From contig JACNJR010000022.1 in the NCBI GenBank assembly GCA_014382495.1, positions 1-39,735 on the forward strand: a stretch of DNA of 39,735 nt, given 5' to 3'. The notes beneath the pieces are model-generated. The model had not been told where the DNA came from. It did not search any database and was given only the letters and a program-made list of their open reading frames with translations. Position 1 is the first letter of the stretch; every line of letters begins with the position of its first letter. The DNA is from Candidatus Cloacimonadota bacterium (GTDB lineage: Bacteria; Cloacimonadota; Cloacimonadia; JGIOTU-2). Both the position numbers and the translations under genes were made by a program. Positions 1 through 36,974 of the stretch are shown piece after piece.

Positions 1-2272
1 CGGGATTGGCTGCTACCATACCTCCTGACGCTAAATCGCCAAGCGTAAATCCAGTGTAGTTCGCATTATCACAATAAAGTACAAATTGAAATGAAATCGC
101 ACCATCAGATTCTGTTAATGCATATGATTCATCCTCTGCAATTGTTATTGTGTTTCCTTCGCTATAAACATAAATCATCGCTTCGTCTAAACTTCTACTT
201 CCTCCTTTTCCACCTTCAACTGGGAATTCTGTAATGATGCCAGCGGAGTATTGCAGAATAAGTGCGGCGTCGTATGCGGAGACATTATCGTCACCATTCA
301 CATCGCCGGCAGTAAGCTGGTCATCAGTCCAATCTGAGATAATACCAGCAGAATATTGGAGAACGAGTGCAGCGTCGTATGCAGAAACATTATCGTCACC
401 ATTCACATCGCCGTAAGTTCCTGTCCAGCCACCGCTTTCTGGGAATTCAATTTCAATTGCAGCATATTCCATTGTTCCGCCATCTGCAGCGCCAAATCCG
501 TGAATAGAAGAGCCGAAACTGTTATCATCGAGGAACATCAGATGAACTTTTCCGTGTGTGTCGTCCACATATTCCACTTTATCGCCTGGATAGACATAGC
601 AAGGAAGCATTCCGTTTAATTCAGATGCGTAATTATCGCTATTTGGATTTGCATCTATGTATAATACATCCGACCAAGTTGCGCCATTATCGGAAGATAC
701 TGAGAAAGCCATTTGAGAATATTCCATCCAATCAGCATAATCTTCATCGCCGTCATTAGCATATTTATTATACAATCCATCGTGCCATACAGCAACAAGC
801 CATCCCATATCTTCATTGCCAACTATTTTGAAGACATTTTCATGGAATGCAGTATCGTTGTCATAGAAGTAAATTGGCCAGCCAGAATAGAATAAGATAT
901 CTCCATAATATTCAGATTCCGAATCTTCGACGAATTCATCAACAGCGCCATCATTATTTGTATCCCACGGGAGATACATTTCATCTTCAGCAAAGTATGT
1001 CTGGTCTTGGGCAAAATCTTCGTGAATAGGTGCTTCAAGATTATGATAATGGAATGTCTTGGTTGCAAAATCAAATGTGATATGTTTTGGGAAAATGATG
1101 TATGGATAGTAGAAACTATCTCCTGCAGCATCTGGATATGTTTGCAAGCCCATTGCACCGGTCATATGCAGGTTACCATCTGCATCAAAGATCGCATTTT
1201 GATGTCCGGAATTTACGAAACCGAAATACATATCATAAGGAGTTCCATCTTCTGCTACAAATGTTGGGTCACCGAACATATCGAGCGGATTATCGACAGG
1301 ATACTGGCAATTTAGTGTGACAGGTTCTTCCCAAGTAACTCCGCAATCTTCACTCCAAAGGACAAATAATTCGTCCCCGCCAGTATCGTAAACAGAGTAA
1401 CCCATATAGGCAACGACATCGCCATTTACAGCCATTGCTTTCATCGCTCTTGCCCATTCAGGATCTTCAGCATGCATATCATCAAAGTAATCAAATTGTT
1501 GGTATGTCCAATTTAAATCAAGTTGTGCATCAAGTTCAGCAGAACTAAAATCTGCATAACCGAGTAAAACATTTTCAGAAGGTAAATCTGATCCGCCAGT
1601 AGAGGAAGTTGCATTATTACCAGTAACGAATACTCTGTTGTATCCAGCAGTTGGTGAATTTCCTACATAAGTATATGGCCAGATAAATTCATCCGGATCG
1701 TGATCGGTAAATTCAATCACATGATAAGGATCTTTCCACAGACCTGGACCACCCATTAGATGGAATAGGTCATAAGTAAATAGACAATCCCAGTTGGCGC
1801 CAGCCGATTGATGCCAAGTGCAGAATGGGTCTGCAGTAACGGGGTCAATATCAATTCCGCCATATCCTTCCCAAATATCGGAACCGGCAATAGTTGCATT
1901 TCCAGTCAAATTACCACTTGCATTAATATAGGCATAATACTCTCGTCGGTTTGCCACAGAGGTTTCTTGTCCGTGGTAAATCATATAGACACCACCAGCA
2001 GGATAGTAATATGGTTCAGAAACATCGGGTTGAACTCTTACGGGTAAGCTGTTGTAACTACCTGGCATATAATCGTAATATGTAGTAGTTAGATCAATTG
2101 GGTCAACAACAAATTGATAAGCTGGAACATCTCGAGTGATTTTTCTTACTGGAACTTTTTCATTCGCCAGCTGTCGAATGGGGATTTTTGTTTTAGCCGG
2201 TTGCATAATTTCATTTGCAAACAGGCCAAAAACAAATGTACTGATAATTAAAAGAACAATGAATTTTTTCAT
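1..2272 (-). CDS. Secreted BNR/Asp-box repeat protein with a tandem dockerin-type repeat pair and a possible cohesin-like tail. Partial: the 3' end lies beyond the window.
   Basis: This ORF is absent from the ORF track because no stop codon falls inside the window. Hand translation from the ATG at 2272..2270 (GGAG 5 nt upstream) stays open down to position 2. The N-terminus MKKFIVLLIISTFVFGLFA looks like a signal peptide. Two Asp-box motifs are present (SEDCGVTW, SSDNGATW). Two copies of GDVNGDDNVSAYDAAL(V/I)LQYSAGII match the dockerin EF-hand-like repeat. Confidence 0.75.
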   Translation of the reverse strand, partial: MKKFIVLLIISTFVFGLFANEIMQPAKTKIPIRQLANEKVPVRKITRDVPAYQFVVDPIDLTTTYYDYMPGSYNSLPVRVQPDVSEPYYYPAGGVYMIYHGQETSVANRREYYAYINASGNLTGNATIAGSDIWEGYGGIDIDPVTADPFCTWHQSAGANWDCLFTYDLFHLMGGPGLWKDPYHVIEFTDHDPDEFIWPYTYVGNSPTAGYNRVFVTGNNATSSTGGSDLPSENVLLGYADFSSAELDAQLDLNWTYQQFDYFDDMHAEDPEWARAMKAMAVNGDVVAYMGYSVYDTGGDELFVLWSEDCGVTWEEPVTLNCQYPVDNPLDMFGDPTFVAEDGTPYDMYFGFVNSGHQNAIFDADGNLHMTGAMGLQTYPDAAGDSFYYPYIIFPKHITFDFATKTFHYHNLEAPIHEDFAQDQTYFAEDEMYLPWDTNNDGAVDEFVEDSESEYYGDILFYSGWPIYFYDNDTAFHENVFKIVGNEDMGWLVAVWHDGLYNKYANDGDEDYADWMEYSQMAFSVSSDNGATWSDVLYIDANPNSDNYASELNGMLPCYVYPGDKVEYVDDTHGKVHLMFLDDNSFGSSIHGFGAADGGTMEYAAIEIEFPESGGWTGTYGDVNGDDNVSAYDAALVLQYSAGIISDWTDDQLTAGDVNGDDNVSAYDAALILQYSAGIITEFPVEGGKGGSRSLDEAMIYVYSEGNTITIAEDESYALTESDGAISFQFVLYCDNANYTGFTLGDLASGGMVAANP
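239..412 (-). repeat. Two about 69-nt direct repeats with a 105-nt (35-codon) period, encoding the two dockerin repeat segments
   Basis: I hand-aligned 239-307 against 344-412 and found about 60 of 69 positions identical. Both translate on the minus strand to GDVNGDDNVSAYDAALxLQYSAGI. Confidence 0.85.
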
Positions 2273-2336
2273 TTTTTCTCCTTTTTTCTTTAGTTGGTTA
2301 ATATCTCAAATGGCATATTATTATGCCGCCTATCAA

Positions 2337-3383
2337 TTAAAATTTCATCTTCATAGAAAATCTCATCGGTCCCGTAAGAAAGCTACCGTCTAATTTCTCT
2401 TCCAAATCCCCGAAACGAGAGTAAGAGAAATCAAGGTCTAAGATAGCCACCGATGTTGGGATTTTCCAACCTAAGCCAAATGATAAACCTTGGCAATCTA
2501 AATTAAATTGATATCCAGATCTCAAAAAGAATGTTCCAACGCAATATTCAACTCCTAAATTATATGTTTCCAATCTATCAACGCAATTGTCCAATTGAAA
2601 TACAGCATCAACTGATTGCAATTTTTCTTTGTAGAGATTCATTGCAATTCCGAGCGAAAAATTCATAGGAATTGGAAAGTCCAACTCCTCGCGATCTTCA
2701 TCAATCAAGCCATCGCCATCGTTGTCAAGCAGGTCGAATGGGTCTTCATCAATAGCGCCATCATTGTCATTATCTAAAGTATATTTCAAATTTGGTCCGA
2801 AGTTTCTCAAGCTCATACCGATTGTCAAATCGCGCCAACCTGTATCGTATAAACTTCCGAGGTCAACGCTCCAACCGTTAACATAATACTCATCTAAATT
2901 TTCTCGCAGATATTTGCCGGTAATTCCGAAGGAGAATTTGTCAGTCAATCGGGAAGCGTAAGATACTCCTGCCATAATATCGCTGCAAGTAAAATACATA
3001 CCGTTCCATCCATAAATTTCTTCAGTGGTAACTTCCATCCAATCCATATGCAGAATTGATCCAGTAAAAGCAAATGTGCCAACTGAAGTGTTGAAAGCAT
3101 AAGTTGCATATTCGAAATTTATATCAGCCACATAGCTAAGATGATTGAGAAAAAGTTCGCTACCATTTGTATAAGCCAAGCCAGCAGGATTCCAATATGA
3201 AGCTGATGCGCCTTTTGCGTATGGCGTATATGCTTCACCCATTCCGATTCCGCGAGCATCAATACCAAGTTTCAGAAATTGCAGACCAGCAGTTCCGACT
3301 TTGGGAAAAATTTCAGCTGAAAGAAAATTTGGCACAATAGATAAGATCATTAGAATTATTACTATCCTTTTCATTTCAAGCAT
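2337..3383 (-). CDS. PorV/PorQ-family outer-membrane beta-barrel (T9SS shuttle-type protein) with an acidic loop insertion
   Basis: It has a signal peptide. The N-terminal signature VGTAGLQFLKLGIDARGIGMGEAYTPYAKGASASYWNPAGLA is typical of the PorV/PorQ family. Alternating beta-strand patterns run throughout, and the C-terminal residue is aromatic (KMKF). An AAAGGA SD lies upstream of the ATG. Confidence 0.8.
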   Translation of the reverse strand: MLEMKRIVIILMILSIVPNFLSAEIFPKVGTAGLQFLKLGIDARGIGMGEAYTPYAKGASASYWNPAGLAYTNGSELFLNHLSYVADINFEYATYAFNTSVGTFAFTGSILHMDWMEVTTEEIYGWNGMYFTCSDIMAGVSYASRLTDKFSFGITGKYLRENLDEYYVNGWSVDLGSLYDTGWRDLTIGMSLRNFGPNLKYTLDNDNDGAIDEDPFDLLDNDGDGLIDEDREELDFPIPMNFSLGIAMNLYKEKLQSVDAVFQLDNCVDRLETYNLGVEYCVGTFFLRSGYQFNLDCQGLSFGLGWKIPTSVAILDLDFSYSRFGDLEEKLDGSFLTGPMRFSMKMKF

Positions 3384-3433
3384 CAGATCCTTTCTTTATT
3401 GGATCTTGTCAATTTGCTCAAATATTTTTGACC

Positions 3434-3462
3434 AATATCCAATATTATAATAATTTTGTCAA
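3434..3462 (-). promoter_or_regulatory. Candidate sigma70-type promoter for the PorV-like gene (TTGACA, 17-nt spacer, GATATT)
   Basis: The reverse complement of 3457-3462 is TTGACA. A 17-nt spacer follows (3440-3456), and the reverse complement of 3434-3439 is GATATT. The site lies about 50 nt upstream of the ATG at 3383, inside the only large (115 nt) gap of the block. This is a sequence match only. Confidence 0.3.
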
Positions 3463-3498
3463 GAAAAATTTTATATTTTAATTTATTCATTTTATTTA

Positions 3499-6400
3499 TT
3501 ACTTAATAATAACAAATTTATCAACTTTTCTGTATCCGCTATCGTGATCTTCCACAGAATAAAGATAGATACCACTTGCGATAATCTGGTCATATCGTGA
3601 CAGCATATCCCATTCGTGAATTCCACTTGCGGAAATACCTGTTGGTGATGCTTTGCTTGGATTGATAACATCCACAGAATGTGCGCCGTTATGTTCTATT
3701 TTATCGACAAGGTCGCCAGCAAGCGTGAATATTTTTATAGTACAATTTTCTGGAAGATTAACAAACCAAATGCGTTTACTTCTGTCGCCCTTATCATCAT
3801 TAGCTCGTCTTCCATCAAACTTGCTTTGACCGAGATATGGATTTGGCACAACATAAATATTATCCATTTCATTTTTAGCGGCAGGACCTGGGAAAATAGT
3901 TTTCATATTAGCATCTTTTCCAGATTCAAGTGATTGTAGGTCTTTATCTGGAATTCCTCTGTCAAATGTAGTTACGGAAATATAATTTTCCACGCCCTTA
4001 TCAGGATACTCTATTGTATATTTATAATATCTTCTTGAAAGTCGTTCTTTTTTGAGTTCAGTTAGACCTTGCGGGTGGCTTTGGCCGAGATGTCCTTTAA
4101 GAGGAATTAATGCATCGTCATATAAAGCCAAAAAGAGTTCATCTGAAATATTTGGATTTGGATTTTTGAAAAGAAGAGCTTCCTGCTCCTTAACACCAGT
4201 GCATTCAGCAATGACATCGATGCTGTCGAGAGTATTGTAAAGCGGAGTTCCATAAACAGTATCACCAACTGCAATTTTAGTAAAACTGTATAAATCATCA
4301 AATCTGTAATAATTAGTCCAACTTGTTGTATCTCCGTATACGATATCGTTCCCATCAACTATATGTGATTGAGGTAAGCCATTATTAATGCCGAGAAATC
4401 CGCCGAAGTTCACTTCGTAAGTTGGATCTTCTAAATTTTGACAGACGGAATAATCTGCAAAATCTTGTGGAGTATCAATTTTATCCCATCTTCCCACCTT
4501 CGTCCAAGCACCTTCAAGGCCAGACTTGGACCTTTTCCACAATGTATAACCTTGGAAATCGTGTCGCAATCTATCTGCTGTCCAAGGATTTACTGATGCA
4601 TTATCATTTCTGTTAATCGGTTTTGTGTAATCTATCTCTCCATTTGACAATGTGTCCCAAGGTGCAAATTCTGCTGGGAAATATCCATATTCTTCAAGTT
4701 GTTCATCATAATTATCAATATAACTATCGAGAAAATTATTTCCCGTTTCCTCTTGCCAACCGATAGCACCTTTTGTGACATTCATTCTATCAACGGTAAA
4801 TTCTGAGCGATTATCCCAGTAAACAAAAACAGAATCTCCATCTTCTGATTGTTGGCATGTCATTTTTGGATAATCTGGTGGGCCTGGCGCTTCATAATGT
4901 TTGAATGTGTCGGGCAGAATAACGGTAGTCAAAGTTTGTGCTTCACCATAAATTATTTTTGACCATTCGGAAGTTCGTTTTATCTCCTCCGGACTCTCTC
5001 CAGGAAAGATTCCGATAACAATTTTCATTGTTTCGTATGGAGCGAGATTCCAACTTGCTGTATCTGGTTCGGTAAGACCTTTCATATTTCCACAGAACCC
5101 AAAGAGAAAGCGTGTGTCGCAAGGATCACTTTCTTGTGTTTCTGGTTCATCTCTCAAAGAGGTAAATTTATTATCATCAGGATTTCTATCTGTCAGAAGC
5201 CAATATTTTTGGTTTCGATTATCTTGTGTATTTGGATCTCCATCGTGAGGACCGTCACCTCTTTTCCAAGTCCAACAAGCGAAATCAAGTTGATCTGGAT
5301 CGGGTGTACAAACCCTTGCGCCGATATATCCTGTGGTAAGTCCGCCATCTTGGTCGGCATCGTAAGTGTATGCAAATTCATATCCTTCGCCAGAAACATA
5401 ACTGCTTATATCTTCGAGGGAACGAGGATCTCCACCCCAAGATTGAGGACCGACATCGCAATCCATATATATACCCATCGCACAATCGTACAATGTGTCT
5501 AATGGATTCATATTTGTGATATCAAATTCTACATAGATTAAATTTTTGATATACTCATAACTCCACTGAAAACTTACCTGGCGGACTCGGACATTCAACG
5601 GTTTATGTTCCTGCCCAGTCCCGCTTCCCCAGGTTCTCTCACCTGATGTACCGAATGGACTATAATCGTAATAATAACCAAGATAATCTTGCTCTGAAAG
5701 TGGATATCCATCTTCATCTTGTAATCCATCGCCATCATCATCCTGCGGTCGTGCAAAGTTGTATAAGCTATCAGTATCGTCAAATCCTAAATCCAAAAAG
5801 CCAAGCGGAAACCAAATATCAATATTATCGTTGATTTCACCTACATCGCATTGTGTATTTTCAACTACTCCGCGAAATTCATGAGTCCCACTGGAAAATG
5901 TGCTAAATTGTGAAGGGACGCTATGGCGGTATGGAAAAGCAAATCCGGCAGGGTCTTCATCAATCAAGCCATCGCCATCATCGTCAATGCCCATCTGCTG
6001 TTCTCTAATCGATGATTCCAAAACACCATCAGATAAATTATTTTCGTCATACAAAGAGCCAAGAGCATTCTCTTCCAACTGATTATATGCGGGAAGATAT
6101 TCATACATATCTGCATCGCCATCGAATCCGACTGAGACCAAAGTATCAATAACTCTTCCAAATCCTACATTTGTTGTTCCTGTCTCGTCTTGGTCCGCAT
6201 TCTGCCAGTAGAGTTCATCTCCGTAAGAATTTCGTCTCTGCTTACAAGCACCAAACCATAATGCGCCTTGATAAAGATAGTCAATACCAGAACCGCCTGG
6301 ATATTCCAGAGATGGCCATTGTGGAGTTACATCATCTCCTGAACCGAAGAAACCATAGTTGCTGATTCTCATCCAGATATTACCGACATTGTGGTAATGG

Positions 6401-6528
6401 AAAATATCTAATCTTTTGCTGCCAGAACCACTTTGTATAGCTTTTGTAAATGCGAGAGAAGAAAATCCGATAACGAATAATACGACTAAAAACAACATCA
6501 AATTCTTTCTTTTTGAGCTGAAAAGCAT
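3499..6528 (-). CDS. Large secreted T9SS cargo protein of unknown function (1009 aa) with acidic DxDGDGLxDED motifs
   Basis: It has a signal peptide (LMLFLVVLFVIGFSSLAFT) and a GGAGG SD 4 nt upstream of the start. Two acidic Ca-binding-type motifs are present (IDDDGDGLIDEDP, QDDDGDGLQDEDG). The C-terminus is a T9SS sorting domain. I recognised no catalytic motif. Confidence 0.85.
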   Translation of the reverse strand: MLFSSKRKNLMLFLVVLFVIGFSSLAFTKAIQSGSGSKRLDIFHYHNVGNIWMRISNYGFFGSGDDVTPQWPSLEYPGGSGIDYLYQGALWFGACKQRRNSYGDELYWQNADQDETGTTNVGFGRVIDTLVSVGFDGDADMYEYLPAYNQLEENALGSLYDENNLSDGVLESSIREQQMGIDDDGDGLIDEDPAGFAFPYRHSVPSQFSTFSSGTHEFRGVVENTQCDVGEINDNIDIWFPLGFLDLGFDDTDSLYNFARPQDDDGDGLQDEDGYPLSEQDYLGYYYDYSPFGTSGERTWGSGTGQEHKPLNVRVRQVSFQWSYEYIKNLIYVEFDITNMNPLDTLYDCAMGIYMDCDVGPQSWGGDPRSLEDISSYVSGEGYEFAYTYDADQDGGLTTGYIGARVCTPDPDQLDFACWTWKRGDGPHDGDPNTQDNRNQKYWLLTDRNPDDNKFTSLRDEPETQESDPCDTRFLFGFCGNMKGLTEPDTASWNLAPYETMKIVIGIFPGESPEEIKRTSEWSKIIYGEAQTLTTVILPDTFKHYEAPGPPDYPKMTCQQSEDGDSVFVYWDNRSEFTVDRMNVTKGAIGWQEETGNNFLDSYIDNYDEQLEEYGYFPAEFAPWDTLSNGEIDYTKPINRNDNASVNPWTADRLRHDFQGYTLWKRSKSGLEGAWTKVGRWDKIDTPQDFADYSVCQNLEDPTYEVNFGGFLGINNGLPQSHIVDGNDIVYGDTTSWTNYYRFDDLYSFTKIAVGDTVYGTPLYNTLDSIDVIAECTGVKEQEALLFKNPNPNISDELFLALYDDALIPLKGHLGQSHPQGLTELKKERLSRRYYKYTIEYPDKGVENYISVTTFDRGIPDKDLQSLESGKDANMKTIFPGPAAKNEMDNIYVVPNPYLGQSKFDGRRANDDKGDRSKRIWFVNLPENCTIKIFTLAGDLVDKIEHNGAHSVDVINPSKASPTGISASGIHEWDMLSRYDQIIASGIYLYSVEDHDSGYRKVDKFVIIK
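3502..3858 (-). other. Region encoding the T9SS C-terminal sorting domain (type A/FlgD-Ig-like) of the 1009-aa protein
   Basis: The last 119 residues read IYVVPNPYLGQ...IKIFTLAGDLVDKI...SGIYLYSVED...KFVIIK. This matches the VyPNP...i.IftlsG.lV...GiY.y...gKfvi.K pattern of T9SS CTDs. Confidence 0.75.
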
Positions 6529-6562
6529 TACACCTCCGAATCTATAATAAAAATTTTCATAA

Positions 6563-7201
6563 TTAAAAACTAAATTTGATGGGAAAAGTTACCCAGACAG
6601 CAACCGCTTTTCCCTGATTTTTTGCTGGAATGAATTTCCATTTTCTTACAGCTCTAATCGCAGCTTCATCTAGTCCGCCAGGTCCAGATTGGAGTGATTG
6701 GATGACATCTACAGCACCGACAGTTCCATCTGCAAAAACTTCTGCCTGAACAACAACGGTTCCTTCCAAACCACTCTTTTTCGCAAAATCTGTATATTCT
6801 GGCCAGACCTTCTTGATTGCGATTGGCTCTTCATCGTGAACGACAAATTTTGGAGTTGTACCAACACTACTGACTGGAGGAGGTTTTGTCAAATCAAGAG
6901 TAGTCGGTCCAATCGTTTCGATTTCCTCAATATCCTCATCGTCAGACATTTCAGATTCCTCAATAGTAAGTGGAATAATTGGTTTTACCTCTTCAGGCGG
7001 TTTGAATTTCTGTCTAACTTCTGGAGGAATTTCGATACTTTGAATCTCTTTCATTTTGTGTTTATACGGTTTTACTTCAATTTTTGGAAACACGATAAAT
7101 GCGAAGAGAATTAGAAGTAAAGCTAATGTGAGCGAACGGTCAAAATAGCTACTCGCTTCTTCTTTCCAATCTAAAAATTTATATTTTGATTTATTTTGCA
7201 T
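6563..7201 (-). CDS. tonB: Energy transducer TonB
   Basis: It has one N-terminal TM helix, then a Pro/Lys/Glu-rich linker (IPPEVRQKFKPPEEVKPIIP). The C-terminal TonB domain reads VWPEYTDFAKKSGLEGTVVVQAEVFADGTV...AAIRAVRKWKFIPAK. Confidence 0.9.
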   Translation of the reverse strand: MQNKSKYKFLDWKEEASSYFDRSLTLALLLILFAFIVFPKIEVKPYKHKMKEIQSIEIPPEVRQKFKPPEEVKPIIPLTIEESEMSDDEDIEEIETIGPTTLDLTKPPPVSSVGTTPKFVVHDEEPIAIKKVWPEYTDFAKKSGLEGTVVVQAEVFADGTVGAVDVIQSLQSGPGGLDEAAIRAVRKWKFIPAKNQGKAVAVWVTFPIKFSF

Positions 7202-7212
7202 TTTTTTTTGAT

Positions 7213-7620
7213 TTAGCGAAGAACTTTGGCTTCGAATGAAACTCGCAAAGCTTCCGCCTTTTTCAGTTCATTCATAATATCTACCATAAGTCCATAATCA
7301 GCGTCTCTGTCCGTGCGAAAACTTGTGATAATGCTCGGATTTGTAGCGAGTTTTTTCATCATAACATATCGTATTTGGTCGGTTTCTATGGCGAAATCAT
7401 CGATTGAGATAATTCCAGATTTGCTTACATAAATAGTTGCGGCATTTCTGCGATTTATTTTCTGAATCGATTCGGCTTTTGGAAGAATAACATTAAGCCC
7501 TTTTTCCTTCACAAAAGTTGTACTAACCATAAAAAATATTAGCAATAGAAAAGCGATATCAGACATCGAGGCATTCGGAATCTCAGTCGCAATTTTCGTT
7601 TTTCTTTCAATCGTTGCCAT
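7213..7620 (-). CDS. exbD: Biopolymer transport protein ExbD/TolR (second copy)
   Basis: The N-terminus IPNASMSDIAFLLLIFFMVSTTF matches the ExbD TM signature. The size is right at 135 aa. It lies 8 nt downstream of the first exbD. Confidence 0.9.
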   Translation of the reverse strand: MATIERKTKIATEIPNASMSDIAFLLLIFFMVSTTFVKEKGLNVILPKAESIQKINRRNAATIYVSKSGIISIDDFAIETDQIRYVMMKKLATNPSIITSFRTDRDADYGLMVDIMNELKKAEALRVSFEAKVLR

Positions 7621-7628
7621 AAATCCTC

Positions 7629-8042
7629 TTACCTTGTGGAGAGTGAAATTGTCTTCGCGCCCGCTGCAAGCAGTTGGTCAAGCGCTTCTACCATCATATG
7701 ATATTTACATCTTCGGTCTGCTTCAAGCACGAAAACCATTTTTGGATTTTCATTCACTTTTTTTTCTATAATTTTTCTTAAATCGCTATAACTTATGCGT
7801 CGTTCGTCGATAGCGATATCACCTTTTCGGTTAACTTTGATTTTGGTGAGATTCTCTTTTTTGATTTTAACTTTTTGGCCGCCAGTTTCTGCGTGAGGAG
7901 GTAGAATCAAACCGAGTCCTTTTTTCGCATCAAATTTCGTCGTAACAAGAAAGAAAATTAGCAGAAGAAACGCCACATCTGCCATTGAAGCAGTTGGAAT
8001 ACTCGCTTTTTTTCGCACCTTTTTTTGCTTTACAATATTCAT
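7629..8042 (-). CDS. exbD: Biopolymer transport protein ExbD/TolR (first copy)
   Basis: It carries IPTASMADVAFLLLIFFLVTTKF and is 137 aa. Its start lies 2 nt after the exbB stop. Confidence 0.9.
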   Translation of the reverse strand: MNIVKQKKVRKKASIPTASMADVAFLLLIFFLVTTKFDAKKGLGLILPPHAETGGQKVKIKKENLTKIKVNRKGDIAIDERRISYSDLRKIIEKKVNENPKMVFVLEADRRCKYHMMVEALDQLLAAGAKTISLSTR

Positions 8043-8044
8043 AT

Positions 8045-8854
8045 TTATTTAGATTCTAAAATTGCTTCTGATAATTTTTCAGAACCGGTCTGCATATCAA
8101 TTATTAAGCCGTCAATTGCTGAAACGAAGAAATTATTAATCAATTGAATTGGAATTGCCACGGCGAGTCCAGCAGCAGTTGTAACCAAAGCGACAGAAAT
8201 TCCGCCAGCGACGATTGTTGGTTCAACTTCTCCGGCAGCTTCGATTGCCTCAAATGCTTGAATCATTCCGACGACTGTTCCGAGAAATCCCAGCATAGGC
8301 GCAAGATTGATTGTTGTCGCAAGTGCGATTAATCCTTTTTCGAGAAAAGACATCTCCAAAATTCCTGCATTCTCAATCGCTTTCTCAACTTCTTCAATCC
8401 CTTTATCCGCCTTCAATAATCCGGAATGAAGGATTGTTGCGACAGGACCGCGAGTTTCCGAACAGAGTTTGAGCGCTTCATCATATTTCTTTTCTGCTAC
8501 AAGTGGATTTAGTTGTTCCATAAAATCATGAACAGAAATTTTTGCATATCTCAAGGCAATAATTTTCCAAATAGAAGTTGCCAATGCCCAGATAACAAGA
8601 ATCAGCATAGGCCACATAACCCATCCACCTTTGATGAAGAGTTCAACTAAACCGCTACCGACGATTTTTTTCGCAAATGCTTCAAATCCGCCACCAGTTT
8701 TAGCAACTTCAGTTTCAATAACCTCTTCGACGGCAGAAGTTGTGTCTTCTGCAACTTCATTCTCTTCGGCGTTCAGCACTAAAGCGATTGACAAAATAAT
8801 CACAAAGGCAATCGTTGCCAGGATTAGAATTCTGAATTTCTTACTTTTATTCAC
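8045..8854 (-). CDS. exbB: MotA/TolQ/ExbB proton-channel protein with an N-terminal periplasmic extension
   Basis: A GTG start at 8854..8852 is preceded by a TAAGGAGGA SD. The C-terminal region LAPMLGFLGTVVGMIQAF...GGISVALVTTAAGLAVAIP is the ExbB/TolQ signature. Confidence 0.9.
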   Translation of the reverse strand: MNKSKKFRILILATIAFVIILSIALVLNAEENEVAEDTTSAVEEVIETEVAKTGGGFEAFAKKIVGSGLVELFIKGGWVMWPMLILVIWALATSIWKIIALRYAKISVHDFMEQLNPLVAEKKYDEALKLCSETRGPVATILHSGLLKADKGIEEVEKAIENAGILEMSFLEKGLIALATTINLAPMLGFLGTVVGMIQAFEAIEAAGEVEPTIVAGGISVALVTTAAGLAVAIPIQLINNFFVSAIDGLIIDMQTGSEKLSEAILESK

Positions 8855-8873
8855 TTTTATTCCTCCTTAGTTT

Positions 8874-11800
8874 TTAGAATTCAAATGCTATTCCGAAATT
8901 ATATTTTCTTCTTTCTGTGTAAATTCCTGGATTGGAGAGACCAGCCATATAAATTGCGGCACCAGCGATATCTTCTGCAGTATCAATATTATCATTCTCA
9001 TCCAAATCATAATCATCCCAATAATCAAATGTTCCTTGGTCGTCGGTTTCACCAGTTTTTTCATTTACCCAATTGATATTCTCCGTATCGAATAGATTTG
9101 TTATATTCAAGTAAAATTTTATTTTTGAATCTCCAAACAGATTAAATACTTTACTGAACCTTACATTTGCAACATTTGTCCAAGGTTTTCTTGCAGAATT
9201 TGTTTCAAGAGGAGCATTACTTTCAGGGTCGGGAGTAATCGGAGTATATGGCTCGCCAGATTGAATTTGCCAGAGAAAGTTAGCATAGAATTTATCAGGC
9301 ATTTTTAATCCCAAAACATAAAACTCCTCATCTTCTGGAATTCTGAAATCGAAGTTGACTGACCCGATATGACGAACATCCCAATCTAATGGAAATTCTC
9401 TTAAATTATCTGTCGCAGAACTAACCTCTGAATTCCTTCCGGTTGCCCAAGAATATGTATATCCAAGATTAAATCCCCAGAAATTACTAAATCTTTTTCT
9501 CAATGTAAATTCTATACCGCGAGCGCTACCATAATCGTTTGTAATATAAAGATAATGCTGTTTCCCAGATTCGGCAATACTATCAGGTAATAGCGAATAA
9601 TCATTGCTCCAAGTACTGACCAAATTGTGAATGTTTTTGTAAAATATGGTAACATCCAAAAGATAATCCTCTGCCATCTGATGTTCCACGCCGACTTCGT
9701 AAGTTATTGTAGTTTCTGGCTTAAGATTTGGATTTCCAACACTTGCTCCAGTACTTCCAACTTCAGGCCGTGCGCTTGTAAAAACATATTGCATTGGTGG
9801 TAATTGACTTTGATAATTATACGCAAAATGCATCACATCTTTTTCAGTAATTGGATGAGAGACGCCCAATCGAGGACTTATCATCAATTGAAATTTTTCA
9901 ACTTTCTCTTTTGAAATATAATAATCTCCACTTCCTGCTTGTTTGAGATATTCTACATAATCCCATTTTGCATCGACAAAATTTCCTGTAGTATCATTAA
10001 TTGTTTGATATTTTTCTCCCAGATACCAGAAATCAAATCTCATTCCGGCATTAACAATCATACCTTCCCATTCCATTTTATCCTGAAGATAATATGCACC
10101 TTGCCAAGGATATGCTTTGTAACCATCCACAGAACCACCGGCAAATTGGACAGCATCTTCAAAATCTGAAATTAAATATGTATGTCCGCCATAACCAAGT
10201 GTATCGGTTTCATTTACAAGTTCGCCATCTTTTGGGCAATTGGCTAAATAATTTGGCAAACGAACAGCATCGTCAATAATCCAAGGTCCAACAAGGCGAT
10301 CCTTAAAGATTTCATTATATTTGATTTCAATTCCGGTTTTAAAACTATGCACATTGTTCACTTGATATGTTAAATCTCCTCTAAGTGTGTATGTAACGGT
10401 TTTATCATCGATAAATGAACCAGAATGAGAACCAATTGATGAGAAGTATGGAACAGTTCGAACATCACCAAGCTGGTCCTTATATTCCACATAGCTGCCG
10501 GGAATATCAACACCATAATTGTTTGATTCAGGGTCATCGGGATTTAAATTAAAATTTCCATCGGAGAAATACCAATCTCTATCCACGCCGGAATTTAGAT
10601 TAATATCGGTTGCAAATCTGCTTCCGCGGATTGTGTAAAACATATTTGATGAAAGAGTATGGTCCCAAGTGAATGCCTGTTGGTCATGAGTTGTAGTCCA
10701 ATGATTGTAGTATTGTAACGAGTACTTCATACTGTGAGAATAAGGAAGATAGGTTTCACTATCACCTCTTAGCGAAAAAGTAAGTTTGTGTTTTGGAGTA
10801 AATTGAAATTTAACTTTTGTGTTCATCTGATAATTATTTTTAAATCTATTACCTAAATCAAAAAAGTCAAAAAGCAGGTCTCTATCTCCTTTGACGCTAT
10901 TTATTTCATTAATAAAATATAGAGAATCTGCGTAAACATTACTTCCATTTTCCATAAATAAGTCCCATAAAATGTCATTTTCATCAATAGTATAATATTT
11001 TCCATATCGCGTATCAGTCCAAGAACCTGAAGCATTGATATAAAATGTGTATTTATCTCTTTTTTGTTTTGAGCCAAAAGGAATGATTGGTCCGCCGAGA
11101 GCAAATTTAATTTGGTCAGAATTATTTCCATCATTGAATAAATGGTCAGAACTGGATTCTATTTTTCCAGTGTATTCAGGTCCGCCAGATTTTGTTATCA
11201 GATTAATAATTGCAGATTGTGCATTACCGAATTCAGCAGTAAATCCTCCTGTTTGAATAGACATATCGCTAACTGCGTCCATATCAAGATTCATACCAAA
11301 TCCGCCATCAACTGGATTTGAGACGGACATTCCATCAATAGTGTAAACGACTTCACCAGAACGTCCACCGCGAATATGCATATCTTCACCAGAACCGACA
11401 GCGCCAGCAGTAACAGCGACAATATCCTGAATATTTTCCACTGTCATATGCTCCATATCTTCTGCAGCGACAATGTTTTCAGAGCCAGTAATATCTCTCT
11501 CAACGAGTTTTCTTTTTGCTTTGACAGTAATCCCTTCAATTCCAATTGCCTTTTTCTGAAGTTCAAAATTTAATGTAGTGGTCAAATCCAGATTGATTTT
11601 CACTTTTTCCACAATCATATGTGCGTAATCCATTCTGAATGCTTTAACATCGTATTTTCCAGCTGGAATATTGATAACCATATATCTTCCCCTAGCATCG
11701 GTTATTGTTCCCATTTGTTTATCCAAAATCATAATGGTTGCACCGATAATCGGGTCGCCGGATTCCTTATCGATTACTCGTCCTATCAATTTCCCAGTTG

Positions 11801-11885
11801 TGCCAGCTGAAAGTATATTCGCAAAAAGCGTAAAAAACATTAAAAAAATCACAAAACGATATTTGCTCATCGACATTCCTTTCAT
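8874..11885 (-). CDS. TonB-dependent outer-membrane receptor with an N-terminal carboxypeptidase-regulatory-like domain (Oar-like architecture, no SusD partner)
   Basis: The N-terminal GKLIGRVIDKESGDPIIGATIMILDKQMGTITDARGRYMVINIPAGKYDV is CarboxypepD_reg-like. The plug-like region reads IVAAEDMEHMTVENIQDIV...HIRGGRSGEVVYTIDGMSV. A barrel of about 800 aa follows and ends in FGIAFEF. The true start is probably the third ATG (11870), which has an AAGGAA SD 6 nt upstream. Confidence 0.85.
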   Translation of the reverse strand: MKGMSMSKYRFVIFLMFFTLFANILSAGTTGKLIGRVIDKESGDPIIGATIMILDKQMGTITDARGRYMVINIPAGKYDVKAFRMDYAHMIVEKVKINLDLTTTLNFELQKKAIGIEGITVKAKRKLVERDITGSENIVAAEDMEHMTVENIQDIVAVTAGAVGSGEDMHIRGGRSGEVVYTIDGMSVSNPVDGGFGMNLDMDAVSDMSIQTGGFTAEFGNAQSAIINLITKSGGPEYTGKIESSSDHLFNDGNNSDQIKFALGGPIIPFGSKQKRDKYTFYINASGSWTDTRYGKYYTIDENDILWDLFMENGSNVYADSLYFINEINSVKGDRDLLFDFFDLGNRFKNNYQMNTKVKFQFTPKHKLTFSLRGDSETYLPYSHSMKYSLQYYNHWTTTHDQQAFTWDHTLSSNMFYTIRGSRFATDINLNSGVDRDWYFSDGNFNLNPDDPESNNYGVDIPGSYVEYKDQLGDVRTVPYFSSIGSHSGSFIDDKTVTYTLRGDLTYQVNNVHSFKTGIEIKYNEIFKDRLVGPWIIDDAVRLPNYLANCPKDGELVNETDTLGYGGHTYLISDFEDAVQFAGGSVDGYKAYPWQGAYYLQDKMEWEGMIVNAGMRFDFWYLGEKYQTINDTTGNFVDAKWDYVEYLKQAGSGDYYISKEKVEKFQLMISPRLGVSHPITEKDVMHFAYNYQSQLPPMQYVFTSARPEVGSTGASVGNPNLKPETTITYEVGVEHQMAEDYLLDVTIFYKNIHNLVSTWSNDYSLLPDSIAESGKQHYLYITNDYGSARGIEFTLRKRFSNFWGFNLGYTYSWATGRNSEVSSATDNLREFPLDWDVRHIGSVNFDFRIPEDEEFYVLGLKMPDKFYANFLWQIQSGEPYTPITPDPESNAPLETNSARKPWTNVANVRFSKVFNLFGDSKIKFYLNITNLFDTENINWVNEKTGETDDQGTFDYWDDYDLDENDNIDTAEDIAGAAIYMAGLSNPGIYTERRKYNFGIAFEF

Positions 11886-11968
11886 AAGAACATTATTCTA
11901 ATATAAAGTTAGAAAATACAATTTTTTGACTCCATAAAATTTAGTGTCAATTTTTTTTCAAAATATTT

Positions 11969-12760
11969 TTATTTTTCTATAATTTTTTTGATAAATTTTT
12001 TTTCAAATTTATTCAGACCACTTTTTTTGTCCAATTTTATCGGAAATATCTCCTCAAAAGCTTCATTTAATTTATATGAAAATTCAAGAAATGAAATAGG
12101 GGAATCCAGAATTTGATTTATTGCTATCGTTTTTTTTGAGAGATATTTTTTGAGAATGTTTCTCTCATTTTCATTTTTGACAATCAGAAATTTTGACATT
12201 AGTTCTTGATTATTATTGAGCAAAATTGAGCCATGTTGTAGAAACGCACCATCTTTTCTGATTTGAGCACTTCCAATAATTTTCTTGTTTTTGTAATGAA
12301 TTTCATATTTTGAAGCACTTGTAAAACAAGGATTTGACCACTTTTTTTGGTTATTCAAACTTGGCAAACCATTTTCCATTTCTGCATCAATTCCAATTTT
12401 TTTCAGTGTTGCTAAAAGTACTTTCCCAATTTTTTGATAGGATTGCAAAATTGAACCTTTCAGAATTCCATCGGTTTTTGCGATAACTGCATAAGTTATT
12501 TCATCGTAATGAAGCACAGCTCTGCCGCCGGTCGGTCTGCGAACAATGCCAAATCCTGATTTTTTTACTCTTTCCAAATCAATATATTTTGCGATATTTT
12601 GATGAAAACCGAAAGAGATTGTTGGTGGATTCCAATCATAAATTCTGACAGTTTGAGGAGAAATTCCATTTGCAACGCCTTCCAAAATTGCTTTGTCTAT
12701 CGCCATATTTTCGTTGGGAGGCATTTTGCCAGAATTAATGAAGCGCCAGATTTCAGCCAT
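11969..12760 (-). CDS. Lipoate/octanoyl-protein ligase family protein (LplA/LipM-like catalytic domain only)
   Basis: It carries the motif RRPTGGRAVLHYDEITY and the lysine motif KKIIGSAQ, both typical of BPL/LPL catalytic domains. At 263 aa it lacks the LplA C-terminal accessory domain. Confidence 0.75.
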   Translation of the reverse strand: MAEIWRFINSGKMPPNENMAIDKAILEGVANGISPQTVRIYDWNPPTISFGFHQNIAKYIDLERVKKSGFGIVRRPTGGRAVLHYDEITYAVIAKTDGILKGSILQSYQKIGKVLLATLKKIGIDAEMENGLPSLNNQKKWSNPCFTSASKYEIHYKNKKIIGSAQIRKDGAFLQHGSILLNNNQELMSKFLIVKNENERNILKKYLSKKTIAINQILDSPISFLEFSYKLNEAFEEIFPIKLDKKSGLNKFEKKFIKKIIEK

Positions 12761-12763
12761 TCA

Positions 12764-13663
12764 TCAAAATTGTGTATATTTTTTCAACAAATTTACTCGG
12801 GTTTCTATCTTTTCTTTATCCATTTTTTTTAATGAATCCAAACTAAAACTTTCAATATCAAACGATGCAGTTATCGTTCCGTACAATGCAGCTTTTTTGA
12901 GCGTCTGTTCGTCAAGTTTTTTTTCGCTTGTGAGAAATCCCATAAAGCCGCCAGCGAAACTGTCTCCAGCGCCAGTCGTATCGATTGCATTTTTTAGAGG
13001 AAAAACAGGAACGAAGAAAAGGAAATTTTTTGCAATCGTGATAGAACCGTATTCTCCTCGTTTGATTACAATAATTTTTGGACCAATTTTGAAAGTTTTT
13101 TCGGCTGCGTCAAAAATTGAAGCTGAATCTGTCAGCATTCTGATTTCATCTTCATTTATAAAGAGAATGTCTATCATTTTTAGCAATTTTTTTAGAGATT
13201 TATTTTTGCTTTTAATCCAAAAATTCATAGTATCTGCTGCAATAATTTTTGGCTTTTTCAATTGGTCAATAACACTAATTTGTAAATCTGGGTCGATATT
13301 TCCCAATAAAATATATTTGGATAATTTCTGTTTTTCTGGAATTTTAGGCGAGAAATTTGCAAAAACATTTAGCGAAGTTTGCAAAGTAATTGCTTCATTC
13401 AGATTTTCATATTTCCCTTTCCAGCGAAAGGTCTTGCCATTTGCAATTTTCACACCTTTTATATCAATATTTTTTGTTTTCAGAAGTTCAAGATATTCGT
13501 TTGGAAAGTCATTACCAATCACACCAACAATTGAAATATTTTTGGAAAAACAGCTAGCAGCAATTGAAGCATAAACCGCAGAGCCGCCGAGTACTTCTTC
13601 GACTTTACCAAAAGGATTTTCAACAGAATCCAGAGCAATTGAACCGATAATTAGCAGATTCAT
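12764..13663 (-). CDS. PfkB-family carbohydrate/nucleoside kinase
   Basis: The N-terminus IGSIALDSV..LGGSAVYAS and the C-terminal DTTGAGDSFAGGF anion-hole motif both fit the family. Confidence 0.85.
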   Translation of the reverse strand: MNLLIIGSIALDSVENPFGKVEEVLGGSAVYASIAASCFSKNISIVGVIGNDFPNEYLELLKTKNIDIKGVKIANGKTFRWKGKYENLNEAITLQTSLNVFANFSPKIPEKQKLSKYILLGNIDPDLQISVIDQLKKPKIIAADTMNFWIKSKNKSLKKLLKMIDILFINEDEIRMLTDSASIFDAAEKTFKIGPKIIVIKRGEYGSITIAKNFLFFVPVFPLKNAIDTTGAGDSFAGGFMGFLTSEKKLDEQTLKKAALYGTITASFDIESFSLDSLKKMDKEKIETRVNLLKKYTQF

Positions 13664-17239: not shown

Positions 17240-17677
17240 TCATTTTTCCAAAATAAAAGTAGCAGGACCACAATTTACCAATTCAATTTCCATCAAAGCA
17301 CCAAAAATTCCAAGTTTTGGTTTAATTCCATTTCTTTCCAATTCTACTGCGAATTCATTGTATAATTTTTCTGCAATTTCTGGCAAGGCAGAATCTGTAA
17401 AACTTGGACGATTTCCTCTTTTGCAATCAGCACATAAAGTAAATTGTGAAACAAGTAAAATTTCACCATTAATATCTTTTATGCTTAAATTCATTTTTCC
17501 ATTTTTATCTTCAAAAATTCTGAGATTCACACATTTTTTAGCGAGATATTCAATCTGATTTTTGTCATCATTCGGCAAAATGCCAAGAAAAAGGAGTAGA
17601 CCAAATCCAATTTTTGAGACAAGTTTTCCGTCAACTTTTACCGATGCGTTTTTCACTCTTTGAACCAAAATCTTCAT
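17240..17677 (-). CDS. dtd: D-aminoacyl-tRNA deacylase
   Basis: The product is 145 aa. It contains [16 protein letters not shown] and GNRPSF motifs. Confidence 0.9.
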
Positions 17678-17780
17678 TGTCGCTCCTGCAATAATTTATC
17701 AAAAAAAATTCAAATTTAGTTTTATTTTGTCAAATTTCTTGACGATAAATTCTTAATCGAAATTCTTCGGAGATCAGATT

Positions 17781-18593
17781 ATGGATAAAAAAATGATTTT
17801 AGTTTGTGATATTGGAAATACGCATATTGTTCTTGGCGTTTATGAGAGCGATAAATTGCTAAAATTCTGGCGAATCCAATCTTCAACTCACAAGACGGAA
17901 GATGAATTTTTTGCCTCTTTCAAATTATTTCTAAATGAGATAAATTTATCGATAAATGATATTTCTGGAGCGGTTATATCTTCAGTTGTGCCGATTTTGA
18001 CAGAAGTTTTCAATCATCTTTTCTGGAAGTATTTTCATCTCAAACCGATTATTGTCTCATCAAAATTGGATTTGGGAATTTCTTACGATAAGATTAAGCG
18101 CCCGTTAAGTATTGGTGGTGATTTAATTGCGAATGCTTTTGCTGCGCATAAAATTTATGGAGATAAAAATAATTGTATTGTTGTCGATTTTGGGACAGCG
18201 ACAACTATTCAGCTTATTTCGCAAAAAAGAGAATTTTATGGAACCGTTATCTCGCCTGGAGTTCAGACATCATCTGAAAGTTTATTCAAAATTGCGGCTC
18301 AACTTGGCCAAATCAAACTTGACTCACCAAAAAAAGTTATTGGCGATGATACAAGGTCAGCAATGCTTTCTGGCATTGTGTTTGGCGCCGCAATAATGGC
18401 AGATGGTTTTATCAAAAAAATCAAAATGGAATATTCAAATCTTGATGGAAATTTTTGCACAATTGCAACTGGCGGAATCTCAGATTTGATTTGCAAACAT
18501 ACAAAATCAATAGAAAAAATAAATAAAAACTTGACTTTACAAGGACTACAATTAATATATTGTCACTTAAAAGGAATTGCCTATACAGATTGA
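17781..18593 (+). CDS. coaX: Type III pantothenate kinase
   Basis: It carries LVCDIGNTHIV (DxGNT) and VVDFGTATT motifs. The length is 270 aa. Confidence 0.9.
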   Translation: MDKKMILVCDIGNTHIVLGVYESDKLLKFWRIQSSTHKTEDEFFASFKLFLNEINLSINDISGAVISSVVPILTEVFNHLFWKYFHLKPIIVSSKLDLGISYDKIKRPLSIGGDLIANAFAAHKIYGDKNNCIVVDFGTATTIQLISQKREFYGTVISPGVQTSSESLFKIAAQLGQIKLDSPKKVIGDDTRSAMLSGIVFGAAIMADGFIKKIKMEYSNLDGNFCTIATGGISDLICKHTKSIEKINKNLTLQGLQLIYCHLKGIAYTD

Positions 18594-18726
18594 TACAATT
18601 TAGATATAGCTTGAACGGCTAAAGCGCATTCACAATTGCGTGTTCGAAGAATTTGCTTTTGGTTTGGTATGCGCATTTTAAGATTAATATTTCCCAACGG
18701 AAATAAATAGCAAAAAAATATCTATT

Positions 18727-24831: not shown

Positions 24832-25269
24832 CTAAAATCTATAACTCAACGAGATAGTATTTCCATCAAATTTTAATTCTATTTTTCTCTTTTTCTCTTC
24901 AAAATCATAAAGTTTAGCATCCACAAAAGCATCCACAACAGAGAGAAATTTGATGGCACCAAACCACCAATACATATTCTGGCGTTTATCGTAAAATTGA
25001 CTATATTCTGCCTGATTTTCATCATCCCAAGCATCATTCATCTTGATGTGATAATCAATGGCATACCCAATCATAATTGCTTCTGTGGCAAACACAGCGA
25101 CAGATTTGAAATATTTTTGATTGTAGAATTGCCCACCGCCAGGAACAATAAACGAATATAACATTGCTTTTGTTGCATTTTTTTCGGAAATTTTTTCCTT
25201 CTCATTTGCAACAAGAAAATTACAAAATAGTAAGATAATTAAGCTAAAAACAAAAATTTTTTTGTTCAT
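24832..25269 (-). CDS. DUF5683-family small membrane/periplasmic protein
   Basis: It has a signal peptide and the motif SFIVPGGGQFYNQKYFKS, which matches the PGxGQxYN signature of DUF5683. Its ATG overlaps the upstream gene's TAA by 1 nt. Confidence 0.6.
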   Translation of the reverse strand: MNKKIFVFSLIILLFCNFLVANEKEKISEKNATKAMLYSFIVPGGGQFYNQKYFKSVAVFATEAIMIGYAIDYHIKMNDAWDDENQAEYSQFYDKRQNMYWWFGAIKFLSVVDAFVDAKLYDFEEKKRKIELKFDGNTISLSYRF

Positions 25270-28194: not shown

Positions 28195-28233
28195 TTATCC
28201 TCCAGAATTTTATTATTTTAGATAGAAAAGACT

Positions 28234-28262
28234 CATTTCTAAAATAGAAATAAATTTGTCAA
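28234..28262 (-). promoter_or_regulatory. Candidate sigma70-type promoter for the acyl-CoA dehydrogenase gene
   Basis: The reverse complement of 28257-28262 is TTGACA. A weak -10 candidate (TAGAAA/AGAAAT) lies 15-16 nt downstream. This is a sequence match only. Confidence 0.25.
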
Positions 28263-28274
28263 GAATACAAAATA

Positions 28275-31774: not shown

Positions 31775-31783
31775 TATTTTTCC

Positions 31784-33283: not shown

Positions 33284-33338
33284 TTAGAAAGAATTTATAG
33301 TAGTTATTTTCATAAATGCTCTATGATTTTAATCATAT

Positions 33339-33842: not shown

Positions 33843-33860
33843 TTTTAATATAAATTATAT

Positions 33861-34751: not shown

Positions 34752-34799
34752 TATATCAATATCTCCAATATATTTTTCTTTATAATAATCATAAAACTG

Positions 34800-36941: not shown

Positions 36942-36974
36942 AATATATTTTTCTCCTTTTTTTAAGTAATATAT

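Follow-up and report, generated by a model that had tools for sequence, protein, structure and literature searches.

A conserved Cloacimonadota operon links a TonB-dependent receptor and its Ton genes to a PorV/PorQ-family barrel and a predicted surface protein with a distinct C-terminal domain

The closest described counterparts of the operon examined here, which lies in a 39,735-nucleotide stretch of DNA from a Candidatus Cloacimonadota bacterium (contig JACNJR010000022.1; the whole stretch is called the window), are systems of the bacterial outer membrane (OM). The Oar system of Myxococcus xanthus comprises a TonB-dependent transporter (TBDT) with a CarboxypepD_reg extension, a plug and a TonB box, adjoined by exbB-exbD-exbD-tonB, and its role in protein export has been shown by experiment (PMC6434023). 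In the SusCD and BtuBG systems, a large TBDT is encoded in one operon with surface capture proteins, and secreted or surface enzymes stand alongside (PMC12578637). The PorU-PorV, PorZ-PorQ and SprB-SprF/PorP-like pairs found in type IX secretion systems (T9SS) keep a surface protein with a long C-terminal domain (CTD) on a dedicated barrel, the genes for cargo and carrier being adjacent (PMC11285876, PMC10994853). In the BAM complex of Bacteroidota (BamA-BamG-BamH), a 14-strand barrel of the FadL/PorV type packs on a larger barrel and grips a surface protein with its extracellular loops (PMC12578637). The window operon brings together a TonB-dependent receptor (TBDR), its Ton genes, a PorV/PorQ-family barrel and a large secreted protein, G3. 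We propose, with a probability of about 0.5, that it represents a conserved TonB-dependent OM uptake machine with surface parts exported by the T9SS. The chitin utilisation locus of Flavobacterium johnsoniae is likewise centred on a TBDT and encodes the T9SS-secreted chitinase ChiA, together with SusC/SusD-like pairs and dependence on the general PorV; to our knowledge it includes neither a private carrier barrel nor a G3-type protein.

The operon consists of eight consecutive genes on the minus strand. They run from the TBDR gene g8 (8874..11885, 1003 aa) through ExbB (g7, 8045..8854, a MotA_ExbB match), two copies of ExbD (g6, 7629..8042, the first, and g5, 7213..7620, the second, both ExbD matches), TonB (g4, 6563..7201, a TonB_C match), G3 (g3, 3499..6528, 1009 aa) and the PorV/PorQ-family barrel g2 (2337..3383, 348 aa) to g1, a secreted protein of at least 757 aa that is cut by the window start (1..2272). 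A sequence-only reading of the window had described these eight genes, with gaps of 19, 2, 8, 11, 34, 115 and 64 nt from the TBDR to g1, and both the coordinates and the gaps are correct. Its family labels (TBDR, ExbB, ExbD twice, TonB and PorV/PorQ-like) were confirmed by Pfam and NCBIfam searches, and its argument for co-transcription stands, the gaps being operon-like. The arrangement is not unique to this contig and is strongly kept across Cloacimonadota. Among 80 independent metagenome loci of this phylum, with G3 at 48-69% identity and with counts taken over the loci that have sufficient flank, the order TBDR-ExbB-ExbD-ExbD-TonB-G3-barrel-g1 is kept in about 95% of the testable ones: the TBDR is present in 49/50, ExbB in 63/66, ExbD in 65/67, TonB in 70/74, the PorV-like barrel in 65/68 and g1 in 50/54. 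Such an eight-gene arrangement is far beyond chance. In the relatives, the median intergenic gaps are 9-29 nt. A 3.1-Mb Cloacimonadota genome contig (L001) and contigs of Syntrophosphaera thermopropionivorans likewise carry these eight genes in this order. Identity to L001 amounts to 54% for G3, 52% for the barrel, 37% for the TBDR and 28% for g1, and the median identity of the best high-scoring segment pair over the 80 metagenome loci is 57% for ExbB, 53% for ExbD, 53% for the barrel, 44% for TonB, 39% for the TBDR and 31% for g1; G3 is the best-conserved member outside the motor genes. Upstream synteny with aspartate aminotransferase, PfkB kinase, PurM and lipoate ligase is kept in Cloacimonadota and synteny downstream is not, so that the unit ends with g1; the genes downstream are unrelated between L001 and the S. 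thermopropionivorans contigs. A public contig that is 99% identical to the window (L004) breaks within this same gene; the split TBDR of that contig was considered as a pseudogene and the idea rejected, the split in the TBDR being a run of N.

The 115-nt spacer between G3 and g2 (3384..3498, minus strand) had been pointed out as the place of a possible internal promoter, and it does contain a sigma-70-like sequence, TTGACA-17-GATATT (3462..3434), which matches the consensus. In 71 relatives the corresponding spacer measures 10 nt in the median and at most 82 nt, so that the 115-nt gap is an outlier peculiar to the lineage of the window. A second promoter-like sequence, TTGACA-18-AAAAAT (11921..11950, minus strand; a consensus match only), lies within the 83-nt gap upstream of the TBDR gene.

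The composition of the module outside Cloacimonadota separates its core from its additions. An exhaustive profile-free search yielded 2023 G3-related clusters (50% identity) at E <= 1e-3, in which one branch shares the whole protein, with a C-terminal module ending ...SGxYLFSVED...GKFVIIK, and another shares the core and ends in an ordinary T9SS type-A CTD. The first branch was sampled in 80 genome loci of Ignavibacteria. The 51 intact loci encode a G3-like protein, a CTD protein, a 513-aa lipoprotein, a TBDR, a PorV-like barrel and an NHL-repeat protein, and 49 of these 51 arrays continue with a secreted NucT-like nuclease; the remaining loci with enough downstream flank show the same order, with some open reading frames (ORFs) split. 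Between Cloacimonadota and Ignavibacteria, the TBDR (hhalign E 7e-107, 880 columns), the barrel (E 4e-67) and G3 (E 5e-59) are each homologous over their full length. Two divergent lineages, L087 and L088, encode a TBDR, a barrel, an NHL protein, G3, a 520-aa protein and a CTD protein, and a third, L089, encodes a TBDR, G3, a barrel and a 590-aa protein. The barrel gene directly follows the TBDR gene in Ignavibacteria, usually abutting it or overlapping it by a few nucleotides, and does so, abutting or overlapping, in L087 and L088 too; it follows G3 in Cloacimonadota and L089. Within 10 kb, about 57 loci of Ignavibacteria encode no TonB, ExbB or ExbD, and neither do L087, L088 and L089. Since the linkage persists outside the phylum without Ton genes, the conserved core consists of the TBDR, the PorV/PorQ-like barrel and a G3 with the special CTD, and the Ton genes are an insertion of Cloacimonadota between the TBDR and G3. 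In 3/3 loci of G3 paralogues that end in an ordinary CTD (L005, L170, L171), neither a TBDR nor a barrel lies nearby, and the distinct CTD class co-occurs exclusively with the barrel and the TBDR. The notion of a private PorV paralogue tied to a cargo, which had been put forward from the window, is supported by the constant company of the barrel and long-CTD G3 homologues in five lineages, and further by these three paralogues without a nearby barrel. The 513-aa lipoprotein of Ignavibacteria (P520; L006, 5693..7216, and orthologues) has an invariant Cys21 in an SCxE...D context, and the acidic residues after this cysteine resemble the surface-lipoprotein export signal of Bacteroidota.

These comparisons bear on an alternative in which a housekeeping TBDR and Ton operon would merely adjoin a T9SS cargo-carrier pair to which it is neither related nor functionally coupled. 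The promoter-like site in the 115-nt gap of the window, the separation of the Ton genes from the other genes outside Cloacimonadota and the variation of the accessory genes by lineage would all suit it. However, the TBDR, the barrel and G3 stay linked in five deeply divergent lineages despite a reshuffled order, and the gaps are operon-like, which makes fortuitous juxtaposition the least probable of the explanations considered here.

The receptor g8 has a signal peptide, a CarboxypepD_reg N-terminal extension, a TonB-box-like GITVKA, a plug and a barrel. Its Pfam matches, all above cutoffs, are CarbopepD_reg_2 (5e-15), Plug (1e-8), TonB_dep_Rec_b-barrel (2e-14) and OMP_b-brl_4 (2e-14), and the TonB-box-like motif ahead of the plug is conserved in the TBDRs of both Cloacimonadota and Ignavibacteria. 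By its extension, plug, TonB-box-like motif and barrel, and by the adjacent exbB-exbD-exbD-tonB, g8 falls in the Oar subclass. It is not a SusC/RagA protein, as TIGR04056 gives 52.5 bits against a cutoff of 368 and covers residues 33-210 only, and family searches found no SusD-family match anywhere in the window. All domains of the energiser are above cutoff and encoded together: ExbB (MotA_ExbB 2.7e-29, 101.9 bits; best NCBIfam models TolQ and ExbB), the first and second ExbD (4e-24, 85.4 bits, and 3e-21, 76.4 bits) and TonB (TonB_C 4.6e-19, 69.1 bits), the last with an N-terminal transmembrane helix and a Pro/Glu/Lys linker. The GldL/GldM (PorL/PorM) models do not match g5-g7, which are recognised only by ExbB/TolQ/MotA and ExbD/TolR models. 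On contig L170, a separate TonB-ExbB-ExbD set (17545..19441, with a single ExbD) stands beside a 1403-aa G3 paralogue with an LTD domain and an ordinary CTD; if L170 belongs to Cloacimonadota, the Ton system of the operon would not be the sole one in such genomes.

The likeness to Oar lends itself to a different reading, also raised from the window sequence, in which the Oar-like barrel and the Ton system would move or release G3 and g1 at the OM, as Oar does for PopC. The extension places g8 in the Oar subclass, exbB-exbD-exbD-tonB is positioned exactly as at oar in M. xanthus (PMC6434023), and energy is required to release carrier-substrate complexes from SprA (PMC10994853). The CarboxypepD_reg extension is nevertheless general in importers from the FCB (Fibrobacteres-Chlorobi-Bacteroidetes) group too, and the SusC/RagA models match the same region. 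The Oar system differs from the window locus in that a PorV-like barrel, a G3 and a T9SS context are all missing from it (PMC6434023), and the Ton genes are dispensable for the module outside Cloacimonadota, lying outside it in Ignavibacteria, L087, L088 and L089. Furthermore, the window encodes a canonical SprA/Sov T9SS translocon (18727..24789, plus strand, 2020 aa; TIGR04189 563 bits against a cutoff of 200) at 6.8 kb from the operon, and the genome therefore has an export route for CTD proteins. Pfam missed this ORF, and its homologues in Cloacimonadota are named SprA. The orthologues of g1 bear type-A CTDs of the ordinary sort, and these are handled by the normal route. Whereas the export role of Oar rests on experiment, the window locus gives no sign of export, and TonB-energised handling of T9SS substrates is left without positive support, the Ton genes being absent from the module elsewhere and SprA being present in the window. 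We consider it very unlikely. The nutrient-capture reading, which had been offered beside it, is favoured on the evidence of accessory proteins that resemble binders or hydrolases, the presence of SprA and the restriction of the Ton genes to Cloacimonadota. A combination of both, in which the Ton system and the Oar-class barrel of Cloacimonadota would serve import and also energise or site the extraction or positioning of g2-G3 after SprA, as a TonB-coupled T9SS step parallel to GldLM or replacing it, is improbable to a similar degree.

The most distinctive component of the module is G3. It has no Pfam family, and Pfam, NCBIfam and PDB sequence searches gave nothing beyond its C-terminus, where only the last 125 residues match, namely the NCBIfam PorZ C-terminus (E 3e-6). 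There are 531 homologues, of which all those named are hypothetical proteins from Cloacimonadota, and the best 120 are at least 51% identical. A structural model was obtained with AF2 from a 94-sequence alignment (pLDDT 86.9, pTM 0.84), replacing a poor one made from 35 close homologues (pLDDT 64.6). In a Foldseek search of this model against the PDB, PorZ ranked first (E 4e-6) and PorU 12th (3e-4), both matches running through the C-terminal Ig-like and CTD region, while a part of the body, some 270 residues, matches beta-supersandwich domains that are non-catalytic and come from GH116, GH94 phosphorylases, dextran dextrinase and cyclic glucan synthase (E from 2e-5 to 1e-3 for GH116, GH94 and dextran dextrinase, where the N-terminal sandwich domain is matched). 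In the predicted layout, a beta-supersandwich body is accompanied by FN3-like and other domains and by a long C-terminal domain. Identification of G3 as PorU was rejected, there being no sortase/C25 match and no Cys or His invariant across the family, and so was identification as PorZ, of which only the CTD matches, the body being a supersandwich and not two propellers. The extra 300 aa of the Cloacimonadota G3 were also considered as fused homologues of the NHL protein or of the P520 lipoprotein, which hhalign comparisons rejected.

The CTD of G3 (3502..3861, minus strand, aa 890-1009) is of the class VVPNPY...GKFVIIK and has nine predicted strands in the AF2 model, including a hairpin at 951-966. 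G3 had been taken for T9SS CTD cargo, but it is not cargo of the ordinary kind: neither TIGR04183 nor PF18962 matches it at E <= 0.01, leaving the PorZ C-terminus as its only match. When compared with the type-A CTD profile, the profile of the G3 CTD reaches a probability of 12.6%, against 99.7% for that of the g1 CTD. From the PNPY motif to the end, the G3 class has a median length of 113.5 aa, versus 84 aa in the canonical CTDs that the paralogues carry. In PorU and PorZ, the CTDs are uncleaved, measure 96-108 aa and have an extra hairpin after strand 5, whereas cleaved CTDs measure 67-88 aa (PMC11285876). By its length and its hairpin, the G3 class falls with the retained CTDs of the PorZ/PorU type. 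It is a class distinct from the type-A CTDs and closest to those retained ones. PorU and PorZ remain on the surface bound to PorV and PorQ, and the CTD of G3 would similarly stay on the protein.

The barrel g2 is a member of the PorV/PorQ family (NF033709, 185.1 bits with the cutoff at 90; Pfam PorV, PF19572, 38.1 against 27) and matches the PorV structure of F. johnsoniae (6h3i_F, E 3.5e-10). It is below the equivalog cutoffs for PorV (NF033710, 68.1 bits against 250, N-terminal half only), PorQ (NF033711, 93.6 against 220 bits) and PorV2 (NF052325, 53.4 against 325 bits), its best equivalog match being PorQ, and at the level of the family it is predicted to be an OM barrel of the 14-strand type. 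These scores distinguish g2 from the carriers of the known T9SS pairs, as does the body of G3, unrelated to PorZ and PorU, from their cargo; moreover, a genetic lock ties g2-G3 to a TonB-dependent transporter, and no T9SS carrier is known to have such a tie. A loop of g2 contains two DxDxDGxIDED motifs (2694..2774, minus strand, aa 204-214 and 220-230), and G3 contains two calcium-binding-like DDDGDGxxDED motifs (5710..5985, minus strand, aa 182-192 and 263-273). Paired DxDxDGxxDED motifs are present in 80/80 G3 and 69/71 g2 proteins of Cloacimonadota and in no other protein of the operon, and they are absent from the outside orthologues that were checked, namely the G3 and barrels of Ignavibacteria, the G3 of L087-L089 and the barrels of L088 and L089. 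The gain of the motif is thus a parallel change, specific to the lineage, in both proposed partners. The motif is also carried by the canonical-CTD G3 paralogue of L005. A second cargo-plus-barrel pair is located 5 kb downstream of the operon in L001 (19799..22041). Its first member is a protein of 463 aa (ExeM/NucH-N-terminal-like, DUF5689) that has a PorU-like CTD, and directly after it comes a PorV-family barrel of 280 aa (72.8 bits for NF033709, which is below cutoff).

We propose that these parts may work together as follows. The TBDR g8 would be an Oar-class transporter energised, in Cloacimonadota, by its own co-encoded ExbB-ExbD-ExbD-TonB, and G3 and g1 would be surface proteins exported by Sec and then by the T9SS. 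G3 would leave via SprA on its private carrier g2, and its long PorZ/PorU-like CTD, not being removed, would keep it there as PorZ is kept on PorQ and PorU on PorV, so that g2 probably holds G3 in place. The g2-G3 pair would sit beside the TBDR, where the beta-supersandwich body of G3 could act as a substrate-capturing lid, a barrel-tethered functional analogue of SusD or BtuG. Further out, g1 may bind or process the substrate, a role that the accessory proteins of the other phyla would fill in their own modules. Finally, TonB would pull the plug of g8 and the substrate would pass into the periplasm. The pair is placed at the TBDR because of the genetic lock between barrel and TBDR and because of the precedent of BamA-BamG-BamH, in which a barrel of the FadL type forms the bridge from a large barrel to a surface protein (PMC12578637). 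That complex is unlike the proposed one in that its large barrel is BamA and not a TBDT and that BamH is a lipoprotein, and the sequence relation is found only at the level of the FadL superfamily. Carrier-anchored T9SS substrates are known as well, type-B CTD proteins staying with PorP/SprF carriers (PMC10994853). Compared with SusCD and BtuBG, the window locus lacks SusD and has a TBDR that does not pass the SusC/RagA model; anchoring of the proposed lid would be by a CTD on a PorV/PorQ-type barrel and not by a lipid; a lipoprotein, P520, is added only in the Ignavibacteria-type module; and the locus contains no regulator or inner-membrane transporter.

The accessory genes resemble factors for capture or degradation: the NucT-like PLD nuclease (OB fold, CTD), a PHP metallohydrolase (CTD), the lipoprotein, the NHL propeller and the BNR-like g1. 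The last had been described as a BNR/dockerin secreted protein. Its dockerin is confirmed (Dockerin_1 2e-11, 44 bits) and is a type I pair, but the BNR part is weak (BNR_2 E 0.0019, 18 bits against 31.4), with two Asp-box motifs readable in the sequence and a family profile that weakly matches sialidases and BNR proteins (E 0.0025-0.04). A canonical type-A CTD (Por_Secre_tail, FlgD_ig) terminates 29/30 of the g1 orthologues; the window copy, cut before its C-terminus, is the only one among the 30 examined in which a dockerin stands where a type-A CTD would otherwise follow at once. Among the accessory proteins of Ignavibacteria, no homologue of the g1 body was detectable. In some Cloacimonadota (L097, L104, L116), g1 occurs as three or four tandem copies, spaced by 130-369 nt, downstream of the barrel gene.

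Several observations weigh against an uptake machine. An inner-membrane permease, a periplasmic binding protein and a dedicated regulator are all absent from the operon, and no riboswitch, which would have named the substrate, was found upstream of the TBDR in the window and four related loci. The unit is conserved near-universally, at a single locus beside housekeeping genes (lipoate ligase, 2-oxoacid dehydrogenase), as substrate-specific uptake loci seldom are. Foldseek matched no catalytic domain in G3, just a generic supersandwich fold, no catalytic or ligand-binding site was identified, and the accessory proteins differ between phyla, so that the substrate may differ as well. The same conservation and housekeeping synteny, together with the missing permease and regulator, lead us to retain an envelope or T9SS accessory complex as a tentative alternative of rather low probability. 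In such a complex, g2-G3 would be an attachment or sorting module of the PorQ-PorZ kind and the TBDR a structural or glycolipid-handling partner, with a function in surface biogenesis. The closeness of the G3 CTD to PorZ and of g2 to PorQ would agree with it, as would the FadL-like barrel and surface proteins within the BAM complex of Bacteroidota. It fits less well with the beta-supersandwich body of G3, unlike the two propellers of PorZ, with the lack of any PorU or PorZ model match beyond the G3 CTD, and with the plug and TonB-box-like motif retained by the TBDR; the nuclease and hydrolase accessory genes also suit nutrient scavenging better.

As for the substrate of the proposed uptake machine, the relatives hint at the scavenging of extracellular nucleic acids or nucleotides. 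The Ignavibacteria array ends in a DUF5689, OB-fold, PLDc_2 (NucT-like) nuclease with a CTD, whose start overlaps the preceding gene, and that of L088 ends in a PHP metallohydrolase with a CTD. Six salvage genes flank the module in L088 (uridine kinase, thymidine kinase, RpiB, adenosine deaminase, PNP and cytidine deaminase; 1012..4935 and 18200..18601), RpiB and adenosine deaminase lie upstream in L087 (1238..2923), and thymidine kinase and nucleoside phosphorylase lie downstream in L001 (16627..18884), where the ExeM/NucH-like OB-fold CTD protein and then the second PorV-like gene are also found. The PfkB kinase of the window (12764..13663) scores best as a ribokinase or nucleoside kinase, below cutoffs. 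Yet the Cloacimonadota operon itself has no nuclease, g1 and the body of G3 resemble glycan-related folds, the salvage genes are partly on the opposite strand and could be relict synteny, and the nuclease assignments are sub-threshold or domain-level matches. The hints are of nucleic acid in the relatives and of glycan in the folds of G3 and g1, and we regard the nucleic-acid version as a doubtful, if conceivable, specification.

The surroundings of the operon can be described briefly. Genes of lipoate metabolism flank the module in three deep lineages: LplA in Cloacimonadota (11969..12760, minus strand, in the window), an E3-LplA/B-E1-E2-LipA operon in Ignavibacteria (upstream regions of L006-L086) and E2-LplA...LipA in L087 (16904..22079). 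This looks like very old conserved synteny. SprA is preceded by a type III pantothenate kinase (CoaX), and the CoaX-SprA pair is also found in the divergent locus L172, which keeps this pair only; the proximity of SprA to the module is not conserved there. No SprA was detected within 10 kb of G3 in any locus, the flanks being too short for a spacing like that of the window. After SprA, a DUF5683 protein is encoded on the opposite strand (24832..25269). The right third of the window (27049..39387, minus strand) is occupied by a surface-polysaccharide biosynthesis cluster, with a GT2, a Wzx-like flippase, a hexapeptide acyltransferase, a methyltransferase, an ADH/GFO fusion oxidoreductase and a GT1, and with two ORFs without a confident family, of 824 aa (29300..31774) and 412 aa (36975..38213).

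The sequence-only reading had held that no described system unites these elements, and this view holds: full-text literature searches that covered Cloacimonadota together with T9SS or TonB, PorV together with TonB-dependent transporters or with Ignavibacteria, and PorV-like or PorQ-like proteins returned no description of the module. Its parts are of known kinds, that is, an Oar-class TBDT, a Ton system, a PorV/PorQ barrel and T9SS cargo, and what appears to be new is their conserved union, the G3 family and its CTD. If the TBDR, g2 and G3 form a physical complex, the module would constitute a second way to build surface-capped TonB-dependent transporters, and the role of T9SS carriers would be widened from shuttling to the permanent assembly of uptake machines. 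A function would also be given to a large hypothetical family (about 700-1000 aa, more than 2000 clusters at 50% identity and E <= 1e-3) and to a distinct CTD class, both of which are conserved in Cloacimonadota, in Ignavibacteria and in further lineages. The first two groups abound in digesters, sediments and anoxic waters and, since the Ignavibacteria version occurs in groups with cultured members, the function of the module is directly testable.

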